In this document: positions 10,034 through 63,515 of the stretch, piece by piece
Position numbering within the stretch: position 1 is the stretch's first letter
Layout of the letters: every line of letters starts with the position of its first letter
DNA from: Candidatus Kaiserbacteria bacterium RIFCSPHIGHO2_01_FULL_54_36
Lineage (GTDB): Bacteria > Patescibacteriota > Minisyncoccia > Phycocordibacterales > UBA2100
Length of the DNA: 64,000 bases
Assembly (NCBI GenBank): GCA_001781105.1
Contig: MFKV01000006.1
Span: forward strand, 9,032-73,031
Direction: 5' to 3'
Notes under the pieces: generated by a model
Told to the model about the DNA's origin: nothing
The model's input: the letters and a program-made list of their open reading frames with translations, nothing else
Databases searched by the model: none
Program-made: the position numbers and the translations under genes

Positions 10034-11125
10034 TTAGTAGTTCCCGTACGGATACTGCGGGTATTGATATGGCTGCGGGTACGGTTGCGAATATGGTTGC
10101 GGCTGCATGTAGTTGTAGTTCGGCGCGTAGTTGTAGTTATTGTTGTAATTGTTGTTGTAGTTATATGGCATCGAGACGTACCGCGAAGCATAGTTGTTGC
10201 CTTGATTTCCATCTGCGGCGTTGATCGAGACGCGGAAGGTGCCGGCGGTTGCCATGGTGAAGCGCAGCGTGTTGATCATGTGACCTCCTGGAGCAAGCGA
10301 TGCCTGAATAGGAGAGCTATAGGTATACCCGCTCTGAGTCGGGAGCTGGGCGGTGAATGTATACGCCCCAGTCGAGCTTCCGCCGATGTTACCGATGTCG
10401 AAGACGGCGGTCGCGAGTCCTGAAGCGTCCACAGTGACCGACGTAATGTGCACCGAGATGTCAGCCGGAGTGCGCGGCATAGGTGTTGGGTTCGGTGTTG
10501 GGGTCGGAGTAGGCGTCGGAGTGGGCGTAGGCGTTGGGGTACTCGGCGTCGTTGGGGTGGTGGTCCCTGTGCGAGGATCGACGATGATGGTGGCAGAGCC
10601 TTGTGCTTGCTTGGTGCTCGTTGAACTCGGCATGAATATCACCGAGACGGGGATACTCGTCGAGGTCGTTCCGATAAGGATACTCTGGAGCTTCAGCGCA
10701 TTGCTTCCCGAAGAGACAGTCGAAGCTGCGCCGCATGGTAGTGCCGCCATTACACCATTCGGACCTTCTGCGAGTATGTGAATATTGCCTTTGCACTGGT
10801 ACAAGAAGGCGTAGCTGCCTTTTTCGGTAGTCGAGTAGTTCCAGCTTACGGTGAACATATCACCCGAGATGACACGCGCAGGTGCTGTAACCTTGATCGT
10901 AGTTGAAGGCGTGGTGTTGAAAAGGGAAGAAAGCCATGGACTTCCGAGGTTTGCGATGTGGAAAAGGCCCCAGAGAATAATGACGATAAGAATGATGAAC
11001 CCGACGATCGCCAGAATGTTGGAAAGCATGCTGGTTTTCGGCTCGCGAGGCACTGGAGGAGGCACCGGGCGATTGATAGTCTGTACGGTCTCGGTCGTTT
11101 TGACTGTTTGTATCTCGTCGGACAT
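10034..11125 (-). CDS. N-terminally anchored surface protein with PT-repeat linker and Tyr/Asn/Gln/Pro-rich C-terminal tail
   Basis: Single TM (ILAIVGFIILIVIILWGLF). (TP)n linker TPTPTPTPTPTPTPNPTP. C-terminal low-complexity NYNNNYNNNYNYAPNYNYMQPQPYSQPYPQPYQYPQYPY. Confidence 0.55.
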   Translation of the reverse strand: MSDEIQTVKTTETVQTINRPVPPPVPREPKTSMLSNILAIVGFIILIVIILWGLFHIANLGSPWLSSLFNTTPSTTIKVTAPARVISGDMFTVSWNYSTTEKGSYAFLYQCKGNIHILAEGPNGVMAALPCGAASTVSSGSNALKLQSILIGTTSTSIPVSVIFMPSSTSTKQAQGSATIIVDPRTGTTTPTTPSTPTPTPTPTPTPTPTPNPTPMPRTPADISVHITSVTVDASGLATAVFDIGNIGGSSTGAYTFTAQLPTQSGYTYSSPIQASLAPGGHMINTLRFTMATAGTFRVSINAADGNQGNNYASRYVSMPYNYNNNYNNNYNYAPNYNYMQPQPYSQPYPQPYQYPQYPYGNY

Positions 11126-34246: not shown

Positions 34247-34894
34247 ATGCTTCACTTTCATATCGTTACGTTGTTTCCTGAATCCATCGAGCCGTATCTC
34301 AAGAGCTCGATCATTGGCCGCGCGCTCGCGGCGAGGAAAATAAAGATTTCATATTACGACCCTAAGAAGTTCACTCGGGACAAATATGGTCGCGTGGATA
34401 GGCGGCCATATGGCGGCGGACCCGGCATGGTGCTCGAGCCGGATGGAATGTTGCGCGCGGCTGAAAAGGCGGTCGGAAAGAAAAGGGGAGCTGAAAAGAT
34501 ATTTTTTGCTACCGACGGGGTGCTGTTTGACGAAGCGATGGCGAGAAAGCTCTCGAAGAAGAAAGACATTCTATTGATCTGCGGACACTACGAAGGTGTG
34601 GATGCGCGTGTGCAGAAAATATTGAAAGCAAAGAAAGTCTCCGTCGGTCCGTACGTGCTGACCGGCGGCGAGCTTCCAGCAGCTACGGTGATTGATGCCG
34701 TTACCCGCTTCGTTCCGGGAGTTTTAGGCAAAGCCGAATCACTCGAAGCCTCACGCGTATCGAGCCCCGAAGTTTACACGCGTCCGGAGGCCCTCATTTG
34801 GAAGGGTAGGAAATACAAGGTCCCCAAAGTACTCCTCTCCGGCCACCATGCTGAAATCGAGAAGTGGAAAAAGTCCCGAATCTCCGGAGGTTAA
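34247..34894 (+). CDS. trmD: tRNA (guanine37-N1)-methyltransferase
   Basis: TrmD SPOUT motifs (…YGGGPGMVL…, …LICGHYEGVD…). The last codons and stop (ISGG*) are encoded inside a REP-like palindrome. Confidence 0.85.
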   Translation: MLHFHIVTLFPESIEPYLKSSIIGRALAARKIKISYYDPKKFTRDKYGRVDRRPYGGGPGMVLEPDGMLRAAEKAVGKKRGAEKIFFATDGVLFDEAMARKLSKKKDILLICGHYEGVDARVQKILKAKKVSVGPYVLTGGELPAATVIDAVTRFVPGVLGKAESLEASRVSSPEVYTRPEALIWKGRKYKVPKVLLSGHHAEIEKWKKSRISGG

Positions 34895-34905
34895 ACCTCC
34901 GGGGA
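34879..34905. repeat. REP-like palindrome copy 1 (TCTCCGGAGGTTAAACCTCCGGGGA)
   Basis: Inverted repeat read directly. Overlaps the trmD stop and the RAYT stop. Confidence 0.7.
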
Positions 34906-35571
34906 ATACTCTCGGTAGTAATCGCGAGCGTCTTGAAGCATCTGGGAAAGATCCGGGAGCGAATCGTAGTATTCTTCGATTACTGGTCCGGTGATCTTTC
35001 GGGCTAAAGGATCTCTGCTGAAGAATTCCCTCGCACTTGAATACGGATATTCGAGAATTTGTGTGCGCATCTTTTTGATGTCGCACTTTCCCTGTTTCCA
35101 TTTTGGCTCAAACAACTCAGCGGGGTTCAAGATAACGTATGGTATTACTTGCTTCAGATACCGATCGTCGTCGATATGCTTTGCCTTATACGTACCTGCA
35201 AATAACGCTCCCGTCCGATCCCGTCGTGCATTGAAGTGCATTGTGTAGGCAGTAAATACTTTTTGCATGAACTTCGCTATCCCGCCGTCTTGAAGTTGTT
35301 GCAGCACAAAGTGCACGTGTGTCGGCATGAGCGAGAACGCCGCAATCTCGACAAGTGGTTTGCCTCGTTCTTGCGGATCACTCGCGAGGATCGATCGCAG
35401 ATCCCTGCGGTATCGGTCGGAGATAGCCTCGGTGTTGTCTCCGTTTGAAACGTATAAAAGCGACATAAAACGCTCGTAGTCGGCTTTCGACTCGAAAACC
35501 CTACGCTTGTCGACCCCTCTGTTGTAGCAGTGGTACCACTCCTCCGTCACGCATGGTGCTCTCGTTGCCAT
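34891..35571 (-). CDS. IS200-like / REP-associated tyrosine transposase (RAYT, Y1 HUH family)
   Basis: HUH motif MPTHVHFVL and catalytic Tyr region YPYSSAREF. Flanked on both sides by the same palindrome. Confidence 0.7.
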   Translation of the reverse strand: MATRAPCVTEEWYHCYNRGVDKRRVFESKADYERFMSLLYVSNGDNTEAISDRYRRDLRSILASDPQERGKPLVEIAAFSLMPTHVHFVLQQLQDGGIAKFMQKVFTAYTMHFNARRDRTGALFAGTYKAKHIDDDRYLKQVIPYVILNPAELFEPKWKQGKCDIKKMRTQILEYPYSSAREFFSRDPLARKITGPVIEEYYDSLPDLSQMLQDARDYYREYSPEV

Positions 35572-35588: not shown

Positions 35589-35617
35589 GAATCTCCGGAG
35601 GTTTAACCTCCGGAGAT
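35589..35617. repeat. REP-like palindrome copy 2 (AATCTCCGGAGGTTTAACCTCCGGAGATT, perfect)
   Basis: Read directly. Confidence 0.75.
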
Positions 35618-35892
35618 TGTGCACAAGCTCCTTGTGGCGATTTTACGAGGACCGACGTACAATAGGTCTTGTAGCACTCTTTGTTGCTGCCGAGTTCTTA
35701 CAATTGAAGAGCGAAAAGTAGCCTAAACCGCCGAGCAATCGGCGGCATGGCGAAAAGTCCAATGAAGCATGGAAAACCCATCATGGGATTGCTTCATTGG
35801 CCGTACGGGGAAACCCGTATGCTCGGCGCAAGCCGGGACCCGTGGTGGGCTTTGTGTTTTTGCTCGCCACGATAGTCAGTCAGGGAGCAGTT

Positions 35893-40700: not shown

Positions 40701-40965
40701 TTTGGGCGGCAAAGCGCAGAACGGCGGCCAGCGCGTGGGGGAAATGGAAGTCTGGGCATTCTTGGGCTACGGCGCCGCATATTCACTCCGGGAAATCCTC
40801 ACCATCAAATCCGATGACATCTTGGGCCGCTCTGCAGCCTTTGATGCTATCGTCTCCGGCAAGCGCATCGAAGAGAGCAACACGCCTGCCACGTTCAACG
40901 TCTTGGTCCGGCATTTGCGCGGTCTGGGGATCGATATTGAATTCAAGGAAAGAGTCAGTAGTTAG
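37759..40965 (+). CDS. rpoB: DNA-directed RNA polymerase beta subunit
   Basis: Full-length RpoB (1068 aa) with conserved regions. Confidence 0.95.
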   Translation: MAKTKHVRPQKYFGKFREPLVKFPSLVESQIASFRDFVEGGAERVFKEFSPISDHSGKKFELKLVKFTFGELRWDEHYAKRTMRTYETPLSMVVRLKNKTTNEEKEQEIFLADFPWMTAHGTFIINGVERIVVPQLARSYGVFFESIPYKGKNYFAAKIIPARGVWIEIESDADGGIYVKIDRKRKFPVTSLLRVLGLTTEKEILGAFSAKGGSASGGEKSPLAHDAVAKTLEHDHAHTPEEAFVEIYRRLRDGDIATPESARDHVNSILSAERYDFSRVGRFHFNRRFGLSIAEKDLANATLTLSDVVRIITHIAELNANPAALPDDIDHLGFRRVRFAGELLESRMRVGLSRMKRNIQDRMAMVDAETTSPVTFVNPRPFQAAIREFFTTDQLSQLMQQYNTLDEIEHLRTLSTLGRGGLTSERAGLEVRDVHSSHYGRVCPIHTPEGKNIGLVLHMSLYARPNEFGIIETPYAKVEKGIVTKEIKYLNALEEEQYAIAHAGIPRDASGHITVKMVEVRKEGNPTLVKREQVDFMEVATNQPFSVATSLIPFVENDDANRALMGSNMQKQAVPLVVPEAPYVATGVEAAAARDSGRLIVAEEAGEVTYADAQTIKVKNADGKTKEYPLVNFSRTNGFTTFHQRPLISVGDSVKKGGILADTSTSVGGQLAIGQNVRVAFLPWFGANFEDAIVISEKLAKEARFTSIHMEEFICVVRDTKLGAEVTTHDIPNVSEFKLRNLDEDGVIRIGAEVRSGDILVGKVTPKGETQLTPEERLLHAIFGEKAKDVKDTSLRMEGGKRGRVIGVKVFSRETGDQLESGVIKRVHIEVAQLRTISVGDKLAGRHGNKGVISRILPEEDMPFDEDGNPVDIILTPLGVPSRMNLGQILELHLGLAAEMLGYQAVVPSFAGATEEEIRSELKKAGVAESGKRVLYDGRTGEAFAQPVSVGVMYILKLHHMVEDKIHMRSIGPYSLTTQQPLGGKAQNGGQRVGEMEVWAFLGYGAAYSLREILTIKSDDILGRSAAFDAIVSGKRIEESNTPATFNVLVRHLRGLGIDIEFKERVSS

Positions 40966-41040
40966 TAGTAAGTAGAAAATAGTATGAATACAAAATACAA
41001 ACACGCGCCACTACTAACTACTAACTACTAACTATTTACT

Positions 41041-44955: not shown

Positions 44956-44970
44956 TTACCCAACATCGTA

Positions 44971-45004
44971 GCCCGGCGGCGTTCGCCGGGCTTTCGCTTT
45001 TCTT
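44971..45004 (+). terminator. rho-independent terminator
   Basis: GCCCGGCG-GCGTT-CGCCGGGC followed by TTTCGCTTTTCTT. Confidence 0.65.
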
Positions 45005-46898: not shown

Positions 46899-48182
46899 AT
46901 GGCAAAAAAGAAACAAATAAAGAAAGCACCTGTCCGGTCAGGAAAAAAGAAGGTCGCTCGGCGGCCGGTCAAGCGCCATATCCGCAAACCAGCACGAGCA
47001 AAGCATAAGGCAACTGCTCGTACCAGGAAATCGCGGGCCGTAAAACCCCTGAAGCGGAAACGGACGATTGCGCCCATTTCGGCTTCGAAGGGTAGGGCGA
47101 TGGATGGGAAGCGCCAAGGCAAGGTGGACGCGCTCATCAATCTCGGCAAGGAGCGCGGCTACATTACCTACGACGAGATCCTGCGAGAATTCCCTACAAT
47201 AGAGGATAATGTGACACTTCTGGAAGAAATGTATGAACTCTTCGGCACTGCCGGCATTGATGTCTTGGAAGGCGGCGGCATGCTCGAAGATACTTCTGCG
47301 GATACGGTCTTGGCGAGCAAGAAACTGCAGAACCGCCGCGCCGATGCTGGCTATGACTCCGTACAGATGTATTTGCGCGAGATAGGTCAGTACCCACTTC
47401 TCAACGGCCAGCAGGAGAAAGATCTCGCGAAGCGAATTTTGCAGAGCGATAGCGAGGCGCGCAACATTCTCGCGCGCTCCAACCTGCGCCTCGTCGTCTC
47501 TATCGCGAAGAAATATGTAAATCGTTCTCCCGACCTGACGCTCCTCGACCTCATCCAAGAAGGCAACCTCGGCCTCTTCAAAGCCGTAGACAAATTCGAT
47601 TACACGAAAGGATACAAATTCTCGACCTATGCTACCTGGTGGATCCGCCAGGCTATCACCCGCGCGCTCGCGGATCAGAGCCGCACTATCCGCATCCCCG
47701 TCCACATGGTGGAAACGATCGCGAAGTACAAGCAAAAAGTGCGCGAGTTGAGCCAGCACCTAGGCCGCGATCCGCTTCCCGAAGAGATCGCCGCGGAAAT
47801 GGGGATTGAGATTGAGAAGATCTACACTATCCAGAAGATCAATCAGGACACCGTCTCACTCGAGAGCCCGGTGGGCGAAGACGACGACGAGCGCTCAACG
47901 CTTGGCAGCTTCATCGCCGACGATACGATCGCAAGCCCCGACATGGATGCCTCGCGCCGCATTCTCAATGAGCAGATGGTAGAGATCCTCGACGAGCTTT
48001 CGCCCAAGGAGCGAAAGATCCTCGAAATGCGCAACGGCCTCACTGACGAGGGGATTTGCTTTACCTTGGAGGAGGTGGGTCGCGAATTCGGCGTCACCCG
48101 CGAACGCATCCGCCAAATCGAAGCCAAGGCGCTTGAAAGAATCAGATTTCACGAAAGAGCCAAGCAACTTCGCAGCTACTAG
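46899..48182 (+). CDS. rpoD: RNA polymerase sigma factor RpoD (sigma70) with Lys/Arg-rich N-terminal extension
   Basis: Regions 1.2-4.2 present (…[27 protein letters not shown]…). dnaG-rpoD order conserved. Confidence 0.9.
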
Positions 48183-48241
48183 CGTAACGACACCGTTTTG
48201 CATATAGGACATATTCGCCCGAATAAGTCCTATAACGGATT

Positions 48242-48291
48242 GTTTGTCCAAATCGAACGGCCGGGCGATTCCATCTTGTGGGGCCCGGCCG
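48242..48291 (-). repeat. conserved terminator-hairpin module copy 1 (GC hairpin + TTCGATTTGGACAAAC)
   Basis: See findings. Lies between convergent rpoD and the 48299-48586 gene. Confidence 0.55.
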
Positions 48292-48298
48292 CGTGTTG

Positions 48299-48586
48299 TC
48301 AGAGCACAAGGCGTATCAGTGCGGCCACGCAAGTGACTACAATGATGCCGCCACCGATCCGCATGAGGCGGCTTCCGTTCGCCGTATGTTTCTCCCCGAG
48401 TTCTTTGAGGGTGTTCAGCGCGCTGTGCTCTGCGGCCAGCACGATCATTGAGTTGGGCGGCAGAACTCTCGCGAACGGGTTGATGGTCGCGGCCAATCGG
48501 CCGATAGATCGCAGCTTATGCCCGCGCCAGAACGTATACGCGCCGGCGAGAAGAGCTGCGATAAAGAGCAGATCCCAGTAACTCAT
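48299..48586 (-). CDS. small membrane protein, hypothetical
   Basis: 95 aa, two TM helices. Confidence 0.45.
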   Translation of the reverse strand: MSYWDLLFIAALLAGAYTFWRGHKLRSIGRLAATINPFARVLPPNSMIVLAAEHSALNTLKELGEKHTANGSRLMRIGGGIIVVTCVAALIRLVL

Positions 48587-48664
48587 GGTTGAACTCCCGG
48601 TTGTCTTCCCGTGAGATGTTATACCCCTATTAAAATTTATCCAAACTGGACTGCAGAGCGCGAT

Positions 48665-49087
48665 TTAAGGAGTAGTGAAGTCGACGCCGAGGGCTAATCC
48701 GGCGAAAAATATGAGGCCGATCAAGACGAGTGGGACGATCAAGAGCCACTTGAGGATATTAGTGTGTTTGTCGGAGAGCTCTTTTGGTGCCGGGCCGAAG
48801 CGATTGTCTATGCCGTTGCCTTTGTAGAAAAGGGGAACGATGGTGTTGTAAATGGGAATGAGCACGTACCATCCACTTTTGTCCAGATCGTGCATCCTGG
48901 AGATGCCAAAAAGTATGGCGCTCGCAAAAGTGATCGCGTTCCAAGCGTAGTCGATATTGCGAGCGGTGTCTCCTGAGAAAGCCAGTTCAATAAGTCCGAG
49001 CACAAGCCCCCCATAGAGAAGGATTATCAGGTAGAGCCAATAGTAGCTGCGGCTGAGGCGTTGTGCACCAAAAGCGTTCCAGTCCAT
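48665..49087 (-). CDS. DUF805 family inner-membrane protein (YhaH-like)
   Basis: RLSRSYYW…, ISRMHDLDKSGWYVLIPI…GNRFGP match the DUF805 signature. Confidence 0.7.
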   Translation of the reverse strand: MDWNAFGAQRLSRSYYWLYLIILLYGGLVLGLIELAFSGDTARNIDYAWNAITFASAILFGISRMHDLDKSGWYVLIPIYNTIVPLFYKGNGIDNRFGPAPKELSDKHTNILKWLLIVPLVLIGLIFFAGLALGVDFTTP

Positions 49088-49112
49088 CCCGCCATGCTAC
49101 TCCTTCATGAAT

Positions 49113-49160
49113 GGTTCCACAAATCGAACGGCCGGGCTCCCAGAGGGTAGGCCCGGCCGG
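49113..49160 (-). repeat. conserved terminator-hairpin module copy 2
   Basis: CGAACGGCCGGGC…GCCCGGCCG hairpin flanked by TTCGATTTGTGGAAC (minus sense). Confidence 0.5.
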
Positions 49161-49183
49161 TGGTTCGCGTTGGCGAGATCGCT

Positions 49184-49507
49184 CTACCAGTTGGCATAGG
49201 CGGTTTCGCGGCGCACGGGCTCGTAGTTGTAGGTGCCAACGGTCACCACGCGCCGTGGGACCCCCATGTTTTCCGTGATCTGGCAGCAGTGGGTCTCGAA
49301 CTGCTGGACGGTCATACCGAGCTTTGCGGCCTCGGCAGCCTTCCAATCGTTGTTGGCGCGTTGGCGTGCCCGCTTGCGCGGAGCGCTAAGCGCTTGGCCG
49401 CGGGTAGCCTTCGACATTGAGTGTTGTCTCGGAGCCTTCAAGCTAGTGTGCAACGACATTGGTTGTCTCCCGGGTGCTCGGACAATGCTAGATTGCCGGA
49501 CAGCCAT
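49184..49507 (-). CDS. small basic hypothetical protein
   Basis: 107 aa. Its ATG is embedded in the conserved TAGGATGG motif. Confidence 0.4.
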   Translation of the reverse strand: MAVRQSSIVRAPGRQPMSLHTSLKAPRQHSMSKATRGQALSAPRKRARQRANNDWKAAEAAKLGMTVQQFETHCCQITENMGVPRRVVTVGTYNYEPVRRETAYANW

Positions 49508-49572
49508 CCTATACTTTCATTTAACATTTGTCCAAATGAAGCGGCCGTACCATCCTCCAGGTGGTACGGCCG
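49503..49572 (-). repeat. conserved module copy 3
   Basis: CGGCCGTACCA…TGGTACGGCCG hairpin + CATTTGGACAAATG…TATAGGATGG. Confidence 0.5.
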
Positions 49573-49810
49573 AAATGAGCGCGGGAAGAGCACGCTTTTC
49601 ACAGCGGGAACTTCCCGCGTGGCGGCTCCGCGAGTTGCCGGCGGGTGTGGGCAGTGCGGCCCTTTTTCAACGCGGCACGTGTACGAACGTTCGGCTTCTT
49701 GAAGTATGGGTGCCCATCGGACCTTCCATTGCCCGAGTTGGCCCCACTGCTGGCTCTTTTCATGGCTCGTTCCCGTTGTTTGAGACATTCCGAATCACGC
49801 AGGACTGTTT

Positions 49811-49872
49811 GCATCCTAGCTCCTCGCACAGGTTTGTCCAAATCGAACGGCCGGGCGAGAAGGCCCGGCCGG
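49811..49872 (-). repeat. conserved module copy 4
   Basis: GGCCGGGC-GAGAAG-GCCCGGCC hairpin + TTCGATTTGGACAAACCTGTGCGAGGAGCTAGGATG. Confidence 0.5.
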
Positions 49873-49885
49873 TCACGATCGCCTG

Positions 49886-50287
49886 CTACTGACGGCGATG
49901 CACCTTCACTGTTGTGCCCGCGGTTTGCCGCTTATTCACACGGGTGATGGTGATGCCCCCGTCGTCGGTGTCGTCGATCCAGTGGACTGTCCCCTCTGGG
50001 TCGTAGGTGTTGTCTTGCGAAGAACCAGTGAGAAGGAATTCGTAGGCCCATGCATTCCCGTCGACCGTTCCCAGATCAACGAAAAAGCGATTGCCTGAGT
50101 ACGTCCCCAAGGTCCACGGACCCTTGCTTGTCATCAAGCCTTCGCAGAGCTTGTGTTTGAATTCGACGAGGGCATCCCTCTTCTCCGGGTTTGGGAATTG
50201 GGCCGCGACTCGCTCAATGACGAACGCTTGCTCGCCAGTCAGCCTCTTACCTCGCCAGTCGATAACAAGGCTTCCAAAGTTTGCCAC
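49886..50287 (-). CDS. hypothetical protein (133 aa), GTG start with strong SD
   Basis: AGGAGGAAGAG precedes GTG. Globular composition, no TM. Confidence 0.45.
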   Translation of the reverse strand: MANFGSLVIDWRGKRLTGEQAFVIERVAAQFPNPEKRDALVEFKHKLCEGLMTSKGPWTLGTYSGNRFFVDLGTVDGNAWAYEFLLTGSSQDNTYDPEGTVHWIDDTDDGGITITRVNKRQTAGTTVKVHRRQ

Positions 50288-50330
50288 CTCTTCCTCCTGC
50301 TTTGAAAAAACGAACTGAAGACCAGGGCGC

Positions 50331-50364
50331 CATCCTAGCCCCTCGCACAGGTTTGTCCAAATCG
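50331..50364 (-). repeat. conserved module copy 5 (motif only, no hairpin)
   Basis: CGATTTGGACAAACCTGTGCGAGGGGCTAGGATGG, ~50 nt upstream of the 49886-50287 gene. Confidence 0.5.
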
Positions 50365-50407
50365 TCCCCCCTCTATATTCTAATTCGCGCGAATAAGCAC
50401 ATTAAGC

Positions 50408-50677
50408 TTATTCGGGCTTTTGTGAAGCGACTGAGAGTATTTTGGAGGGCGAGTGGTGCCCTTTGACGATCCTAACCGCTGAAACGGGTACGCCAAGCTG
50501 CGCTGCGATGAGGGCAACAACGCGGGCATTGGCGAGATTATTCTCTGGCTTCTCGCGCACCGAGAGCTCGAAGTGAGTATCGGATATTTTGTGCACCTTC
50601 TCATTCTTCACCCCCGTCTGCACACGAACTTTGATGTGCACGGATCTCATCTGCGCAGTATACTCGCCCAATGGCAC
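50408..50677 (-). CDS. DUF167 (YggU-like) family protein
   Basis: HIKVRVQTGVKNEKV…FELSVREKPENNLANARVVALIAAQLGVPVSAVRIVKGHHSPSKIL matches the YggU pattern. The start may be the internal Met. Confidence 0.6.
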   Translation of the reverse strand: MPLGEYTAQMRSVHIKVRVQTGVKNEKVHKISDTHFELSVREKPENNLANARVVALIAAQLGVPVSAVRIVKGHHSPSKILSVASQKPE

Positions 50678-51513
50678 GGACGCGAAACAAAAAGAAAAAG
50701 CCGGCGCTTCCCATCAAACATTGGAGCCACTCGTCGCTCATGGCATTTCTGCGCAATCCGCTTGCCTGGTACAAGCGCTACGTGGAGCAAGTGTACGATA
50801 CCCCTTCTTCGCCCGCTGGGATCGTTGGCCGCACAGCGCACGTGGCGCTTCAGCACTTCTACGGAGGAATAGGGAAGGAGGGTGCGATCGCGCTTGGTCT
50901 CGAGCACCTGCGCAACGTGCCGGATTTTGAGATCAATTTTGGCAAGGCCCGCTCACGCGCCGCACAAAAGAAAAAGCGCGCAGCGATGGAGCGGGAGTAC
51001 CTACAGGCCATTTCTTTCTACCTTACGCGGCCGCCAAGGCACAAAGTGCTCGGGGTTGAGGTGATAGCGATGGCGAAGGTGAAAGGGCTTTCGCTTCCAG
51101 TCAAAGCAGTTTCTGACCTCGTAGTTGTTTCTGCGATGGATAAGAACGCCGTAGACATCGTTGACCACAAATTCGTCGAGAATTTCAGCATGGGACGCGC
51201 CAACAAAACACTTTTCCTCGTGCAGGCCATATTCAACTACTACACCGTCAGAGAAAAGTACGGCAGGGAAGTTCGCAGATTTATCGTCTATGAATGCCGC
51301 AAGCGGCGCAACGCCGACGGCTCCGCACAGATGCGGAAATACGTTATTGATTTCGAAAAGCACAAAGGGGAATTCACCCTTTTCCATCGTCTTGTGAATG
51401 ACGCGACCGCCGAGATCTCCCGCAAGCGCCTGTATCTCCCCAATCCCTCAGACATGTTCGAGGGCGAAAATTCGTTCGATATCTACCGCCTCGGGCTCGT
51501 GGATGAGTCGTAG
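50671..51513 (+). CDS. PD-(D/E)xK nuclease superfamily protein (RecB/Cas4-like fold)
   Basis: N-terminal KHWSHSSLMAF…W, motif II D (AVSDLVVV), motif III DIVDHK, and the Q-x3-Y motif (LVQAIFNYY) typical of RecB-family nucleases. Confidence 0.55.
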   Translation: MARTRNKKKKPALPIKHWSHSSLMAFLRNPLAWYKRYVEQVYDTPSSPAGIVGRTAHVALQHFYGGIGKEGAIALGLEHLRNVPDFEINFGKARSRAAQKKKRAAMEREYLQAISFYLTRPPRHKVLGVEVIAMAKVKGLSLPVKAVSDLVVVSAMDKNAVDIVDHKFVENFSMGRANKTLFLVQAIFNYYTVREKYGREVRRFIVYECRKRRNADGSAQMRKYVIDFEKHKGEFTLFHRLVNDATAEISRKRLYLPNPSDMFEGENSFDIYRLGLVDES

Positions 51514-62288: not shown

Positions 62289-63515
62289 CTAGAGTTTGGA
62301 ACGCAAATTCCTCAGATTCTCAAGAAGTTCATCGTACAAAATAAAGCTGATGTTTTTTAGCGACACACCGAGCTTTCGAAAATCACCAGATTCTTTCTTG
62401 TTCTTGAATTGACTACTTGTACCGGCAATAATATATCCGCGTGGACGGACAACACGAATATCAACGCCTTTCTTTTTCTTTACCGCGCGTACATAATCAT
62501 CAGCATTTCTGACGATTTCGTCTATATAATTTTCAATTTGAGATATTGCCTTTACTATGTCCGGTTTCCAATAGTAATTATCGTGGCTTTCATCCAGTGC
62601 CATGAGTGGAGTTTCGTGTCGCTTAATCTCAAAAACATCAACAAATCCATATACATCAGCCAACACAAAATCAGGGTAACTGACACTAATGCTCACATTC
62701 TGCTTTTCAATGGTCGTAACATAGTTCGCGAGGAAGCGAAAAACCTTTTCACTTAAAAACTTTTGCCAGTCATTTTCGGAAATTATTTTCTTGGCGAGAT
62801 TTCCCTCAAACTCTTTTATTACCTCATCGAGAAAAATCTTGTCTGTAACTTTTTTTGTCTCTCGAATAAGTGCGCTTCTTTCGACTTTAACTCCTTTTCT
62901 CTTTCCTTTGAGAGATGTTTCAAATATCTTTGGGAAAAAGTTTTTCAATGCCTCCAAATCTTCCTCATTCAGTTTTTGTGCAACCTTTTTTCTACGAAAA
63001 AGAGCGGCAACTTCACCACCTCTATAATCATCAAAATCTTCAGTGGAAATTCTGATCTGTTTAGGAAATTTTGTGCTCAAAAACGAAGCAACTTCGCTCC
63101 GTAAGTCGTTATTACTATCCTCGTTTATTCGTCCCAAGCGTACCAAAAGATTCTTTACATCAATAAGAGGAAGTGTCACGGAAGTTTTTAGCGTATTCTT
63201 TTTGACAGACTTGGTTTTCTTGGTAATCGTAAACTCCAAGAGTTTATTAGACGCAAGATTATCTTTCAGTGCAGATAGTAAAAAAGTACCCTTCTTACCA
63301 AATCCATAGCCATTCCTGTTTAGATACAAACCAGACGGAAGACCTTGGTAGCCATTTAAAATAATTTTGGAAAGAAATTTTGCCTGACCTCCTTGCAGAT
63401 AGTAAATTGTTCTATTTTGTTTGCGATAAACTTCATACACGCAAAAAGTACCTTTTTCTGAATCAAAGTGTTGTTCCGGTTTTTCTTCTACTTTTTTGGT
63501 ACTCTTTTTTGCCAT
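62289..63515 (-). CDS. Shedu/DUF4263-like PD-(D/E)xK nuclease (candidate anti-phage defense protein)
   Basis: Very low GC. C-terminal SYPDFVLADVYGFVDVFEIKRHETPL…AISQIENY fits a D…(D/E)xK…QxxxY restriction-endonuclease-like core, as in DUF4263. The N-terminus is a variable basic region. The family call rests on recalled pattern only. Confidence 0.5.
   Translation of the reverse strand: MAKKSTKKVEEKPEQHFDSEKGTFCVYEVYRKQNRTIYYLQGGQAKFLSKIILNGYQGLPSGLYLNRNGYGFGKKGTFLLSALKDNLASNKLLEFTITKKTKSVKKNTLKTSVTLPLIDVKNLLVRLGRINEDSNNDLRSEVASFLSTKFPKQIRISTEDFDDYRGGEVAALFRRKKVAQKLNEEDLEALKNFFPKIFETSLKGKRKGVKVERSALIRETKKVTDKIFLDEVIKEFEGNLAKKIISENDWQKFLSEKVFRFLANYVTTIEKQNVSISVSYPDFVLADVYGFVDVFEIKRHETPLMALDESHDNYYWKPDIVKAISQIENYIDEIVRNADDYVRAVKKKKGVDIRVVRPRGYIIAGTSSQFKNKKESGDFRKLGVSLKNISFILYDELLENLRNLRSKL

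Follow-up and report, generated by a model that had tools for sequence, protein, structure and literature searches.

We analysed a 64,000-nt stretch of DNA (hereafter, the window) from the chromosome of Candidatus Kaiserbacteria bacterium RIFCSPHIGHO2_01_FULL_54_36 (contig MFKV01000006.1, positions 9,032 to 73,031), a tiny, uncultured groundwater bacterium in the candidate phyla radiation, or CPR. The subject is an array of small accessory genes on the minus strand and the short modules, made of a hairpin and a promoter-like box, that lie between them. The array interval is bounded by rpoD on one side and by a conserved PD-(D/E)XK nuclease gene on the other, with HSP20, PrsW, an aminoacyl-tRNA synthetase gene and tsaD beyond the DUF167 and PD-(D/E)XK gene pair. 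Because rpoB, rpoC, dnaG, rpoD, the aminoacyl-tRNA synthetase gene and tsaD make up the flanks, the locus is bacterial chromosome, not phage or plasmid. Module sequences and their order are all read on the minus strand. In this direction, the DUF167 stop codon is followed by a hairpin with a palindromic box, M1, gene G1, M2, a 240-nt interval, M3, G3, M4, G4, a weak promoter-only copy, G5, M5, a palindrome with two 15-nt arms and, on the opposite strand, the rpoD stop codon (Table 1).

Table 1. Features of the array and its flanking genes, listed in minus-strand order (window positions; -35 and -10, predicted promoter hexamers; aa, amino acids)
Feature	Position	Strand	Description
PD-(D/E)XK nuclease gene	50671-51513	+	divergent from DUF167 (-); one flank of the array
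DUF167 3' hairpin	50375-50417	-	GCCCGAATAAGC / GCTTATTCGCGC; contains palindromic box CTTATTCGCGCGAATTAG (50381-50396)
M1	50331-50366 (motif 50331-50364)	-	promoter only, without hairpin; palindromic box upstream; -35 TTGGAC 50355-50360, spacer 17 nt, -10 TAGGAT 50332-50337
G1	49886-50287	-	133-aa orphan gene, GTG start; lies between the 34-nt direct repeats M1 and M2
M2	49813-49873	-	hairpin CGGCCGGGC-cttctc-GCCCGGCCG 49848-49871, tail TTCGATTT; TTTGGACAAA 49833-49842; -35 TTGGAC 49836-49841; -10 TAGGAT 49813-49818
M2-M3 interval (G2)	49573-49812	-	240 nt; holds the '71/80-aa basic ORF' (open reading frame)
M3	49505-49572	-	hairpin CGGCCGTACCA...TGGTACGGCCG 49542-49572, tail CTTCATTT; TTTGGACAAA 49527-49536; -35 TTGGAC; -10 TAGGAT 49506-49511 within TA-TAGGAT 49506-49513
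G3	49184-49459	-	91-aa basic protein; ATG 49459 behind GGGAG
M4	49094-49160	-	hairpin CGGCCGGGC...GCCCGGCCG 49129-49159, tail TTCGATTT; degenerate -35 TTGTGG 49117-49122; conserved TGAAGGAGTAGCAT with -10 TAGCAT 49094-49099
G4	48665-49087	-	140-aa DUF805 membrane protein (Pfam PF05656, E = 9e-11)
Weak copy	48616-48650	-	promoter only; TTTGGATAAA 48636-48645, TATAAC 48618-48623, 15-nt spacer; before the 95-aa gene
G5	48299-48586	-	95-aa predicted membrane protein; GGGAG Shine-Dalgarno 7 nt before ATG
M5	48230-48292	-	hairpin CGGCCGGGC...GCCCGGCCG 48258-48291, then TTCGATTTGGACAAAC; TTTGGACAAA 48243-48252
15+15 palindrome	48203-48234		TATAGGACATATTCG/CGAATAAGTCCTATA; holds second copy of the TTATTCGNGCGAAT box (48211-48226)
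rpoD	46899-48182	+	flanks the array; preceded by rpoB, rpoC, dnaG

An earlier note on this DNA had described five copies of one motif with a hairpin. The local repeats are real: the 64 kb contains four exact copies of TTTGGACAAA, all inside the 2.1 kb of the array, M1 and M2 agree in 33 of 34 nt with starts 519 bp apart, and M2 and M5 are identical over 27 of 27 nt. The modules are present far beyond chance and are local to the array; they are also less uniform than first described. The full motif of 34-35 nt, described as recurring throughout the array, exists in M1 and M2 only. The single stem consensus proposed for every hairpin holds for the CGGCCGGGC/GCCCGGCCG stems of M2, M4 and M5, whereas the M3 stem differs inside and keeps just the outer CGGCCG arms. 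M1 was correctly said to lack a hairpin, and M2 to M5 have one each. The gap before the DUF805 gene, thought to be without a module, holds M4; it is in the gap between the DUF805 and 95-aa genes that no hairpin and no stable fold were found (z = +0.5). M1 and the box 3' of DUF167 together form a "box + promoter" unit of about 70 nt. M5 is a terminal, "empty" module without a properly spaced -10 box and without a gene after it. The palindromic box has two copies in the window, one per array end; the palindrome next to rpoD has a combined fold of -40.7 kcal/mol (z = -4.5) and is probably a bidirectional terminator common to rpoD and the array.

Hairpin folding energies are -14 to -24 kcal/mol and the stems have 7-13 pairs, perfect or nearly so; the window copies have no bulges. 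When the stems of 12 copies from seven genomes were aligned, the outer six pairs were nearly invariant and pairs 7-11 varied on both sides (G-C, T-A, C-G, A-T); these compensatory changes indicate that pairing is selected. The GC-rich stem-loop is directly followed by a T-rich tract, with 5-7 T per 10 nt on the gene strand (e.g., TTCGATTTGG, CTTCATTTGG and TTCGTCTTTTGG), which is the layout of a Rho-independent terminator. TTGGACA begins with the last T residues of the tail, and a TAGGAT, TATAGGAT or TAGCAT box lies 16-18 nt after it. The combination TGGACA-N16/17-TAGGAT scored 9 of 12 in a consensus scan (sigma-70-type), which flagged M2 as terminator-like and promoter-like alike. Both the distance between the hexamers and that to the start codon, which is as elsewhere in this genome, agree with a sigma-70-type layout. 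Hairpin energies, covariation, T-rich tails and spacing all fit the core of the earlier reading, namely, a terminator fused to a -35/-10 promoter.

As the comparison set we used the regions upstream of more than 30 other window genes. Many of these genes have a -10 box followed after 6-9 nt by the ATG, including TTGACA-N17-TAATAT+7+ATG at 11125(-), TATAAT+6 before PrsW and TATACT+6 before the PD-(D/E)XK gene, and most genes inspected (e.g., 11125(-), 53025(-), 45029(+), 22995(-) and 26973(+)) carry a -10-like box at this distance without a Shine-Dalgarno sequence. Because so many genes show this arrangement, leaderless mRNAs seem to be what this Kaiserbacteria genome uses by default. M4 follows it, with TAGCAT, 6 nt and the DUF805 ATG, as in PrsW, the PD-(D/E)XK gene, dnaG and others. 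The exceptions are M1, M3 and the weak copy, with leaders of 38-50 nt and AGGAGG or GGGAG sites; M1 fits as the predicted promoter of the 133-aa gene G1, with a leader of about 38 nt and an AGGAGG Shine-Dalgarno sequence. The extended TTCGATTTGGACAAAC was not found in any of the more than 30 other upstream regions, and the module motif is therefore not a generic promoter consensus of the genome, a possibility that the earlier note had named as refuting its reading. In the divergent region at one end of the array, DUF167 (ATG 50650, -) and the PD-(D/E)XK gene (ATG 50671, +) share positions 50648-50673, where an 8-bp palindromic -10 element, AGTATACT (50657-50664), lies 6 nt from both start codons; they look like two leaderless genes with overlapping face-to-face promoters in common.

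The reality of the small genes was assessed with a coding score, the codon-usage log-odds per codon, trained on 21 Pfam-supported window genes (reference genes, 0.0 to 0.43). G1, G3, G4 and G5 scored +0.22, +0.15, +0.31 and +0.14, respectively, with the annotated frame clearly the best of six; the four small genes that had been proposed thus score as coding. The one proposed with 107 aa is G3: a search of 1.84 billion representatives gave six relatives, none of which starts before query residue 17, and on this ground G3 is read as 91 aa from 49459. The ATG of TAGGATG, previously taken as a conserved start codon within the motif, is part of the promoter. An orthologue of G3 with 53% identity is found beside rpoD in a related locus (L023, below), and the only PHROG match among the array genes is borderline (G3, phrog_3061, E=0.009). 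G1 retrieved only itself in a word-indexed search of 5.8 billion proteins, had no Pfam, PHROG, PADLOC or NCBIfam match, and gave an uninformative AlphaFold model (pLDDT 43). The same word search returned no close relatives of G4, and G5 had no family match in the four collections. PADLOC and NCBIfam matched none of the array genes, Pfam matched only DUF805, and an Rfam search of the array came up empty even at E<=1. Because G1 and DUF805 have no relatives by word search, the mobility of cassettes is not traceable through the genes. The array genes are mutually without similarity, and their origin as diverged tandem duplicates was dropped.

The M2-M3 interval differs from the genes. A 71-aa ORF (49599-49814) had been suggested there with reservation, but neither it nor a 54-aa ORF had a positive coding score, and coding signal was absent in all six frames. 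The interval showed no unusual RNA structure (z = +0.34), no Rfam match and no blastn similarity to the corresponding regions of related genomes. It is probably non-coding or a decayed cassette. A relationship of the 71-aa ORF to a conserved 39-aa protein (MAKRAS...) encoded in those regions was rejected, as similarity is absent.

Using RpoD relatives (83-95% identical), we fetched the matching region from other Kaiserbacteria loci. The rpoD-adjacent interval contained another gene set in each of eleven loci, among them one Usg-like gene in L021; acyltransferase, LapA and three small genes in L023; a PemK toxin, two small membrane proteins, Exo_endo_phos, rhodanese and an ArsR-type helix-turn-helix (HTH) protein in L025; Fic plus HTH in L034; AIPR in L030; Usg, rhodanese and three small genes in L033; and a complex-I-like operon in L018, L020 and L028. 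Homologous modules were present in six, namely, L023, L025, L033 and L028 and the metagenome contigs L016 and L017. The last two were found by a 21-mer metagenome scan and are both rpoD-adjacent hotspots, L017 beginning with rpoD. The modules are conserved in at least seven genomes beside unrelated genes, and the label "cassette-like" given to the array is supported by gene contents that differ between genomes around homologous joints. Toxin- or defence-type genes occur in the hotspots of L025 (PemK), L030 (AIPR, an abortive-infection protein) and L034 (Fic with its HTH partner), and the rpoD-adjacent site may be a small defence or accessory island. The idea that the hotspot is a replication terminus was dropped; GC skew is too noisy across the window, and relatives do not share the strand switch.

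Outside the hotspots, the modules were nearly absent. Ten of the 11 exact copies of TTTGGACAAA in 209.5 kb of related loci lay in hotspots, which make up 9.9% of that sequence, as did all CGGCCG-armed hairpins (8/8). An nhmmer profile built from the 3' arm, tail and -35 box was run on 219.6 kb; all 18 matches with E<1 lay in hotspots, on the strand opposite rpoD, and the first one outside had E = 0.97. Exact 20-21-nt motif scans of genome contigs and viral contigs returned single chance matches or none. A metagenome-contig scan gave four matches, of which L016 and L017 are true modules and L014 and L015 look like chance. Module sequences were not found in IMG/VR, and neither the palindromic box nor the M1/M2 promoter had a viral match; three viral matches to TTCRTGARGGAGTAGCAT lay in AT-rich, coding-like contexts and were set aside as chance.

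Comparison of the window hotspot with the 11 others by blastn yielded only the modules, G3 (in L023) and DUF167; nothing was found for G1, the G2 interval, G4 or G5. The "box + promoter" unit of M1 was 80.6% identical to L033 over 72 nt and 78-83% identical to several L025 units. Such units stand before G1 in the window; in L033 the gene behind the unit has 88 aa, and in L025 the genes encode a 50-aa membrane protein and the conserved 39-aa basic protein. In the window, an M4-type promoter, TTC[A/G]TGA[A/G]GGAGTAGCAT, stands before DUF805; L023 has it before a 105-aa gene and L025 before a 107-aa membrane protein. In all three genomes it is 6-7 nt from the ATG, and similarity ends there. The promoter part of M3 is homologous to that before the G3 orthologue in L023, where the orthologous hairpin has the same position and a wholly different stem (GTCGCGCC/GGCGCGAC). 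The L033 array ends as in the window, with a hairpin, TTTGGACAAAC, a second hairpin and the rpoD stop codon. Between species, the homology of the joints ends at the -10 box or the ATG.

Two further elements recur in the relatives' hotspots. A very basic protein of 39-41 aa (MAKRASQDIKNKKSRSRKTKKRL...) with a leaderless promoter is encoded in L020 (9293-9409), L023 (11965-12081) and L025 (5748-5837), and not in the window. A near-perfect 30-nt palindrome, TATATTCTTATTCGCGCGAATTAGAATATA, recurs in L025 (4025-6213), L033 (6873-6888), L034 (11208-11223) and L023 (10164-10179); L025 has six copies, some within tandem 52-nt units, and its ArsR-type HTH gene has copies on both sides.

Signs of recent events were also found. 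The similarity among copies of one genome is far greater than that among orthologous copies of different genomes, and direct repeats enclose single genes: the orphan G1 in the window, and the Exo_endo_phos gene in L025, there as 61-nt repeats with 97% identity. Nine other contigs of the same population were identical to the window where they overlap, one of them with a single-base difference. A strain-variant contig, L010 (sample ERZ4903137), was identical from 50712 down to 49822; the difference A49821G then makes its M2 spacer identical to the M1 spacer, and identity continues through TAGGATGCAAA. From 6 nt past the M2 -10 box, L010 is unrelated, with 17 mismatches in the last 42 nt. This divergent tail (L010 2940-2988, corresponding to window 49760-49808) had no match among the other sequences compared. 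Another contig, L012, ends inside M2. Though thin, the divergence of L010 is a direct sign of a strain difference that begins immediately downstream of a module.

With moderate confidence, we interpret the modules as composite terminator-promoter joints of about 60-70 nt in a hypervariable Kaiserbacteria hotspot, which resemble the promoter-early stem-loop (PeSL) elements of phages and would serve both insulation and homologous exchange. The GC-rich hairpin of 7-13 bp and its T-rich tail would end transcription of the upstream gene. The tail would pass straight into TTGGACA as the -35 box, followed by the 16-18-nt spacer and TAGGAT or TAGCAT as the -10 box, a promoter that would be read by the housekeeping sigma factor. 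Transcription of the next gene would restart either leaderless, 6-7 nt before the ATG, or through a leader of 40-55 nt with GGGAG or AGGAGG. Since each joint would stop transcription upstream and restart it downstream, each small gene would be an insulated, self-sufficient transcription unit. A second probable role of the joints is that of homology patches through which genes are gained and lost, because they alone are common to unrelated gene sets across genomes and are near-identical within a genome; by recombination from one joint to another, the flanked genes would be inserted, deleted or swapped, as proposed for PeSL elements. What the sequences show is the anatomy of the modules, the covariation of their stems, their restriction to the hotspot, their conservation beside unrelated genes in other species and one strain-level breakpoint at a joint; termination at the hairpin, initiation at the box and the movement of genes by recombination are inferred.

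Several observations weigh against this interpretation. The U-tract is interrupted (UUCGAUUU), the -35 TTGGAC and -10 TAGGAT hexamers are both imperfect, the -35 box of M4 is degenerate, and the spacer of the copy before the 95-aa gene is 15 nt. M5 is promoter-like yet geneless, and the M2 promoter seems to drive a non-coding stretch. Promoter and terminator activities are predicted on consensus and comparative arguments. The hotspot restriction refers to about 220 kb of sequence. A role in recombination is suggested by the distribution pattern and one 49-nt divergent tail, while the other population contigs are identical, and vertical inheritance of useful signals combined with other kinds of gene turnover would give much the same picture.

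Of the systems described, the PeSLs of T4-type phages come closest (Arbiol et al., 2010, PMC2839356; Comeau et al., 2014, PMC4122927). PeSLs and the joints are alike as short composites (within about 100 nt) of a sigma-70-type promoter and a stem-loop terminator, which occur in many copies, are concentrated in hyperplastic regions, and stand mostly beside small orphan genes. In both systems, single genes are bracketed by two copies, and in both the proposed functions are signals of its own for each gene and patches for recombination. Differences between relatives map to the PeSL motifs, and for the joints, the strain-variant contig L010 and the ends of cross-species homology may point the same way. 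The differences are that PeSLs belong to phages whereas the joints lie on a CPR bacterial chromosome, between rpoD and core genes; that the module sequences are not in IMG/VR and have no convincing PHROG match (the G3 match being borderline); and that here the hairpin always stands before the -35 box, with a T-tail overlapping the box and stems with conserved CGGCCG arms. A further criterion of PeSL cassettes is excised mini-circles with one chimeric motif; promoter and terminator activity of the joints are predictions from sequence.

Other systems share fewer features. Phage "morons", as described by Hendrix and colleagues, are reportedly autonomous promoter-gene-terminator units inserted between genes. 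The array genes resemble them in being small, in having their own predicted promoter and terminator, and in their added-on look between conserved genes, whereas morons are described from prophages, and a repeated, conserved joint sequence is not part of their definition. Putative mobile promoters, or promoter reuse in prokaryotes, have been catalogued as stretches of at least 50 nt with at least 80% identity within one genome, upstream of non-homologous genes (Nijveen, Matus-Garcia, van Passel, 2012, PMC3575422). The joints likewise place highly similar upstream regions before non-homologous genes, within and between genomes. Measured against that catalogue, M1 and M2 share just 34 nt (97%) within the genome, and M1 reaches 80.6% over 72 nt only between genomes, with L033; the promoter here is moreover fused to a terminator and confined to one hotspot.

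Among the alternatives, the one that survives best takes the modules as purely regulatory terminators and promoters of vertical descent, with the genes between them turned over by illegitimate recombination, decay or de novo birth. The block of promoter, G3, hairpin and promoter is syntenic between the window and L023, the population contigs are identical bar one, and CCGG-rich stems with TTCG.TTT tails are found in further terminators of the window (e.g., 44970-44992). Descent of this kind does not account well for copies that are closer within a genome than orthologues are between genomes (M1/M2 33/34, M2/M5 27/27, L025 97% over 61 nt), for the bracketing of orphan genes by direct repeats of the module, or for homology with other genomes that stops at the -10 box or a few nucleotides beyond. 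We regard this explanation as unlikely, though it deserves serious weight.

It is less likely still that the extended -35 sequence (TTCGATTTGGACAAAC) and the palindromic box are the operator or activator site of one regulon, and we give this explanation little weight; it could coexist with the joint interpretation. Conservation does extend beyond the -35 hexamer on either side, and the 30-nt palindrome lies before rhodanese genes in L025 and L033 and overlaps the promoter of the ArsR-type HTH gene in L025; in these positions it may serve as an operator. The conserved sequence 5' of the -35 box, however, is also the terminator tail, no ArsR homologue was found in the 64-kb window, and co-regulation leaves the direct repeats around orphan genes and the strain breakpoint unexplained. 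An ArsR repressor for the palindromic box of the window was sought as a candidate, and none was found. Co-regulation may well add to the joint interpretation.

We consider it very unlikely that the hairpins or the 30-nt palindromic boxes are sites of site-specific recombination, either attC-like or Xer/dif-module-like, served by a recombinase not identified. The integron elements intI, attI and Pc are absent; Pfam searches of the array genes and about 30 further ORFs in the 64-kb window found no Phage_integrase or recombinase domain, precomputed Pfam tables had none within 10 kb either side of the array, and neither tyrosine nor serine recombinases were present in the relatives' flanks; the search for an integrase that the earlier note had advised was negative, and its caution about attC sites was well placed. 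The array does recall an integron in its co-oriented, small, unrelated and often orphan genes and in repeats around an inverted repeat with a variable centre, the outer CGGCCG arms being conserved in several genomes while inner stems and loops vary. Box copies also stand at both ends of the window array, and in L025, they flank single genes, with one pair inverted. The stems here are, however, short (7-13 bp) and perfect, whereas attC sites are imperfect structures of 57-141 nt with extrahelical bases; the R'/R'' cores are absent, the 3' flank GTTCGAT having C where GTTRRRY needs a purine; and each gene has its own -35/-10 pair by consensus, while integron cassettes are promoterless and depend on a common Pc. 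The boxes also occur in the divergent promoter region of rhodanese (L025, L033) and of the ArsR-type HTH gene (L025), which suggests an operator.

Finally, it is hardly credible that the modules are selfish repetitive extragenic palindrome (REP)/REPIN or miniature inverted-repeat transposable element (MITE)-type repeats mobilised by the Y1_Tnp/REP-associated-transposase-like (RAYT-like) gene of the window (34891-35571), for although REPs are GC-rich intergenic palindromes often found 3' of genes, this gene is flanked by another palindrome, the 64 kb has no copy of the array hairpins outside the array, their T-tail always points to the next gene, and terminal inverted repeats or target duplications beyond the stem are absent. 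REP/BIME, REPIN-RAYT and Correia/ERIC-type MITEs share with the joints the form of short intergenic palindromes able to terminate, stabilise or start transcripts; they are dispersed genome-wide, with termini of their own or with a cognate transposase that the same repeat flanks; neither applies here, and no array-type hairpin was found outside the hotspot in about 220 kb. The RAYT-like gene is a Y1 (IS200-type) transposase gene on the minus strand, with the palindrome CTCCGGAGGTT(T)AACCTCCGGAG at 34881-34905 and 35591-35617. About 100 nt from it lies a LOOT RNA (Rfam RF03000, 93.8 bits) at 35720-35837 (+).

Two other features of the window were recorded. An AT-rich long inverted repeat, with the units AGTAGTTAGTAGTAAGTAG and CTACTAACTACTAACTACTAACTA, lies between rpoB and rpoC at about 40955-41035. 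A 408-aa protein encoded at 62289-63515 (-) has a C-terminal Shedu SduA nuclease domain (Pfam PF14082, E = 3e-25) and represents an anti-phage defence gene in a CPR genome.

More tentatively than the joint interpretation itself, the rpoD-adjacent site can be viewed as an integrase-free cassette platform, in which the joints would capture, express and, through homologous recombination, exchange small orphan genes. Such a platform, which we consider possible if doubtful, would be to cells what the PeSL system is to phages; in Kaiserbacteria and perhaps other CPR bacteria, it might also be a nursery where new genes are tried out with expression signals already in place. The genomes of CPR bacteria are tiny and rich in lineage-specific orphan genes, and how new genes are gained and expressed in them is poorly understood. 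The modules are candidate native promoters and terminators for a group without genetic tools, and they offer a sequence tag with which the variable region can be located in other Kaiserbacteria genomes. If the proposal is true, these bacteria would have a simple route to add genes while leaving the neighbours undisturbed and needing no dedicated recombinase, and the PeSL idea would extend from T4-type phages to a cellular chromosome.

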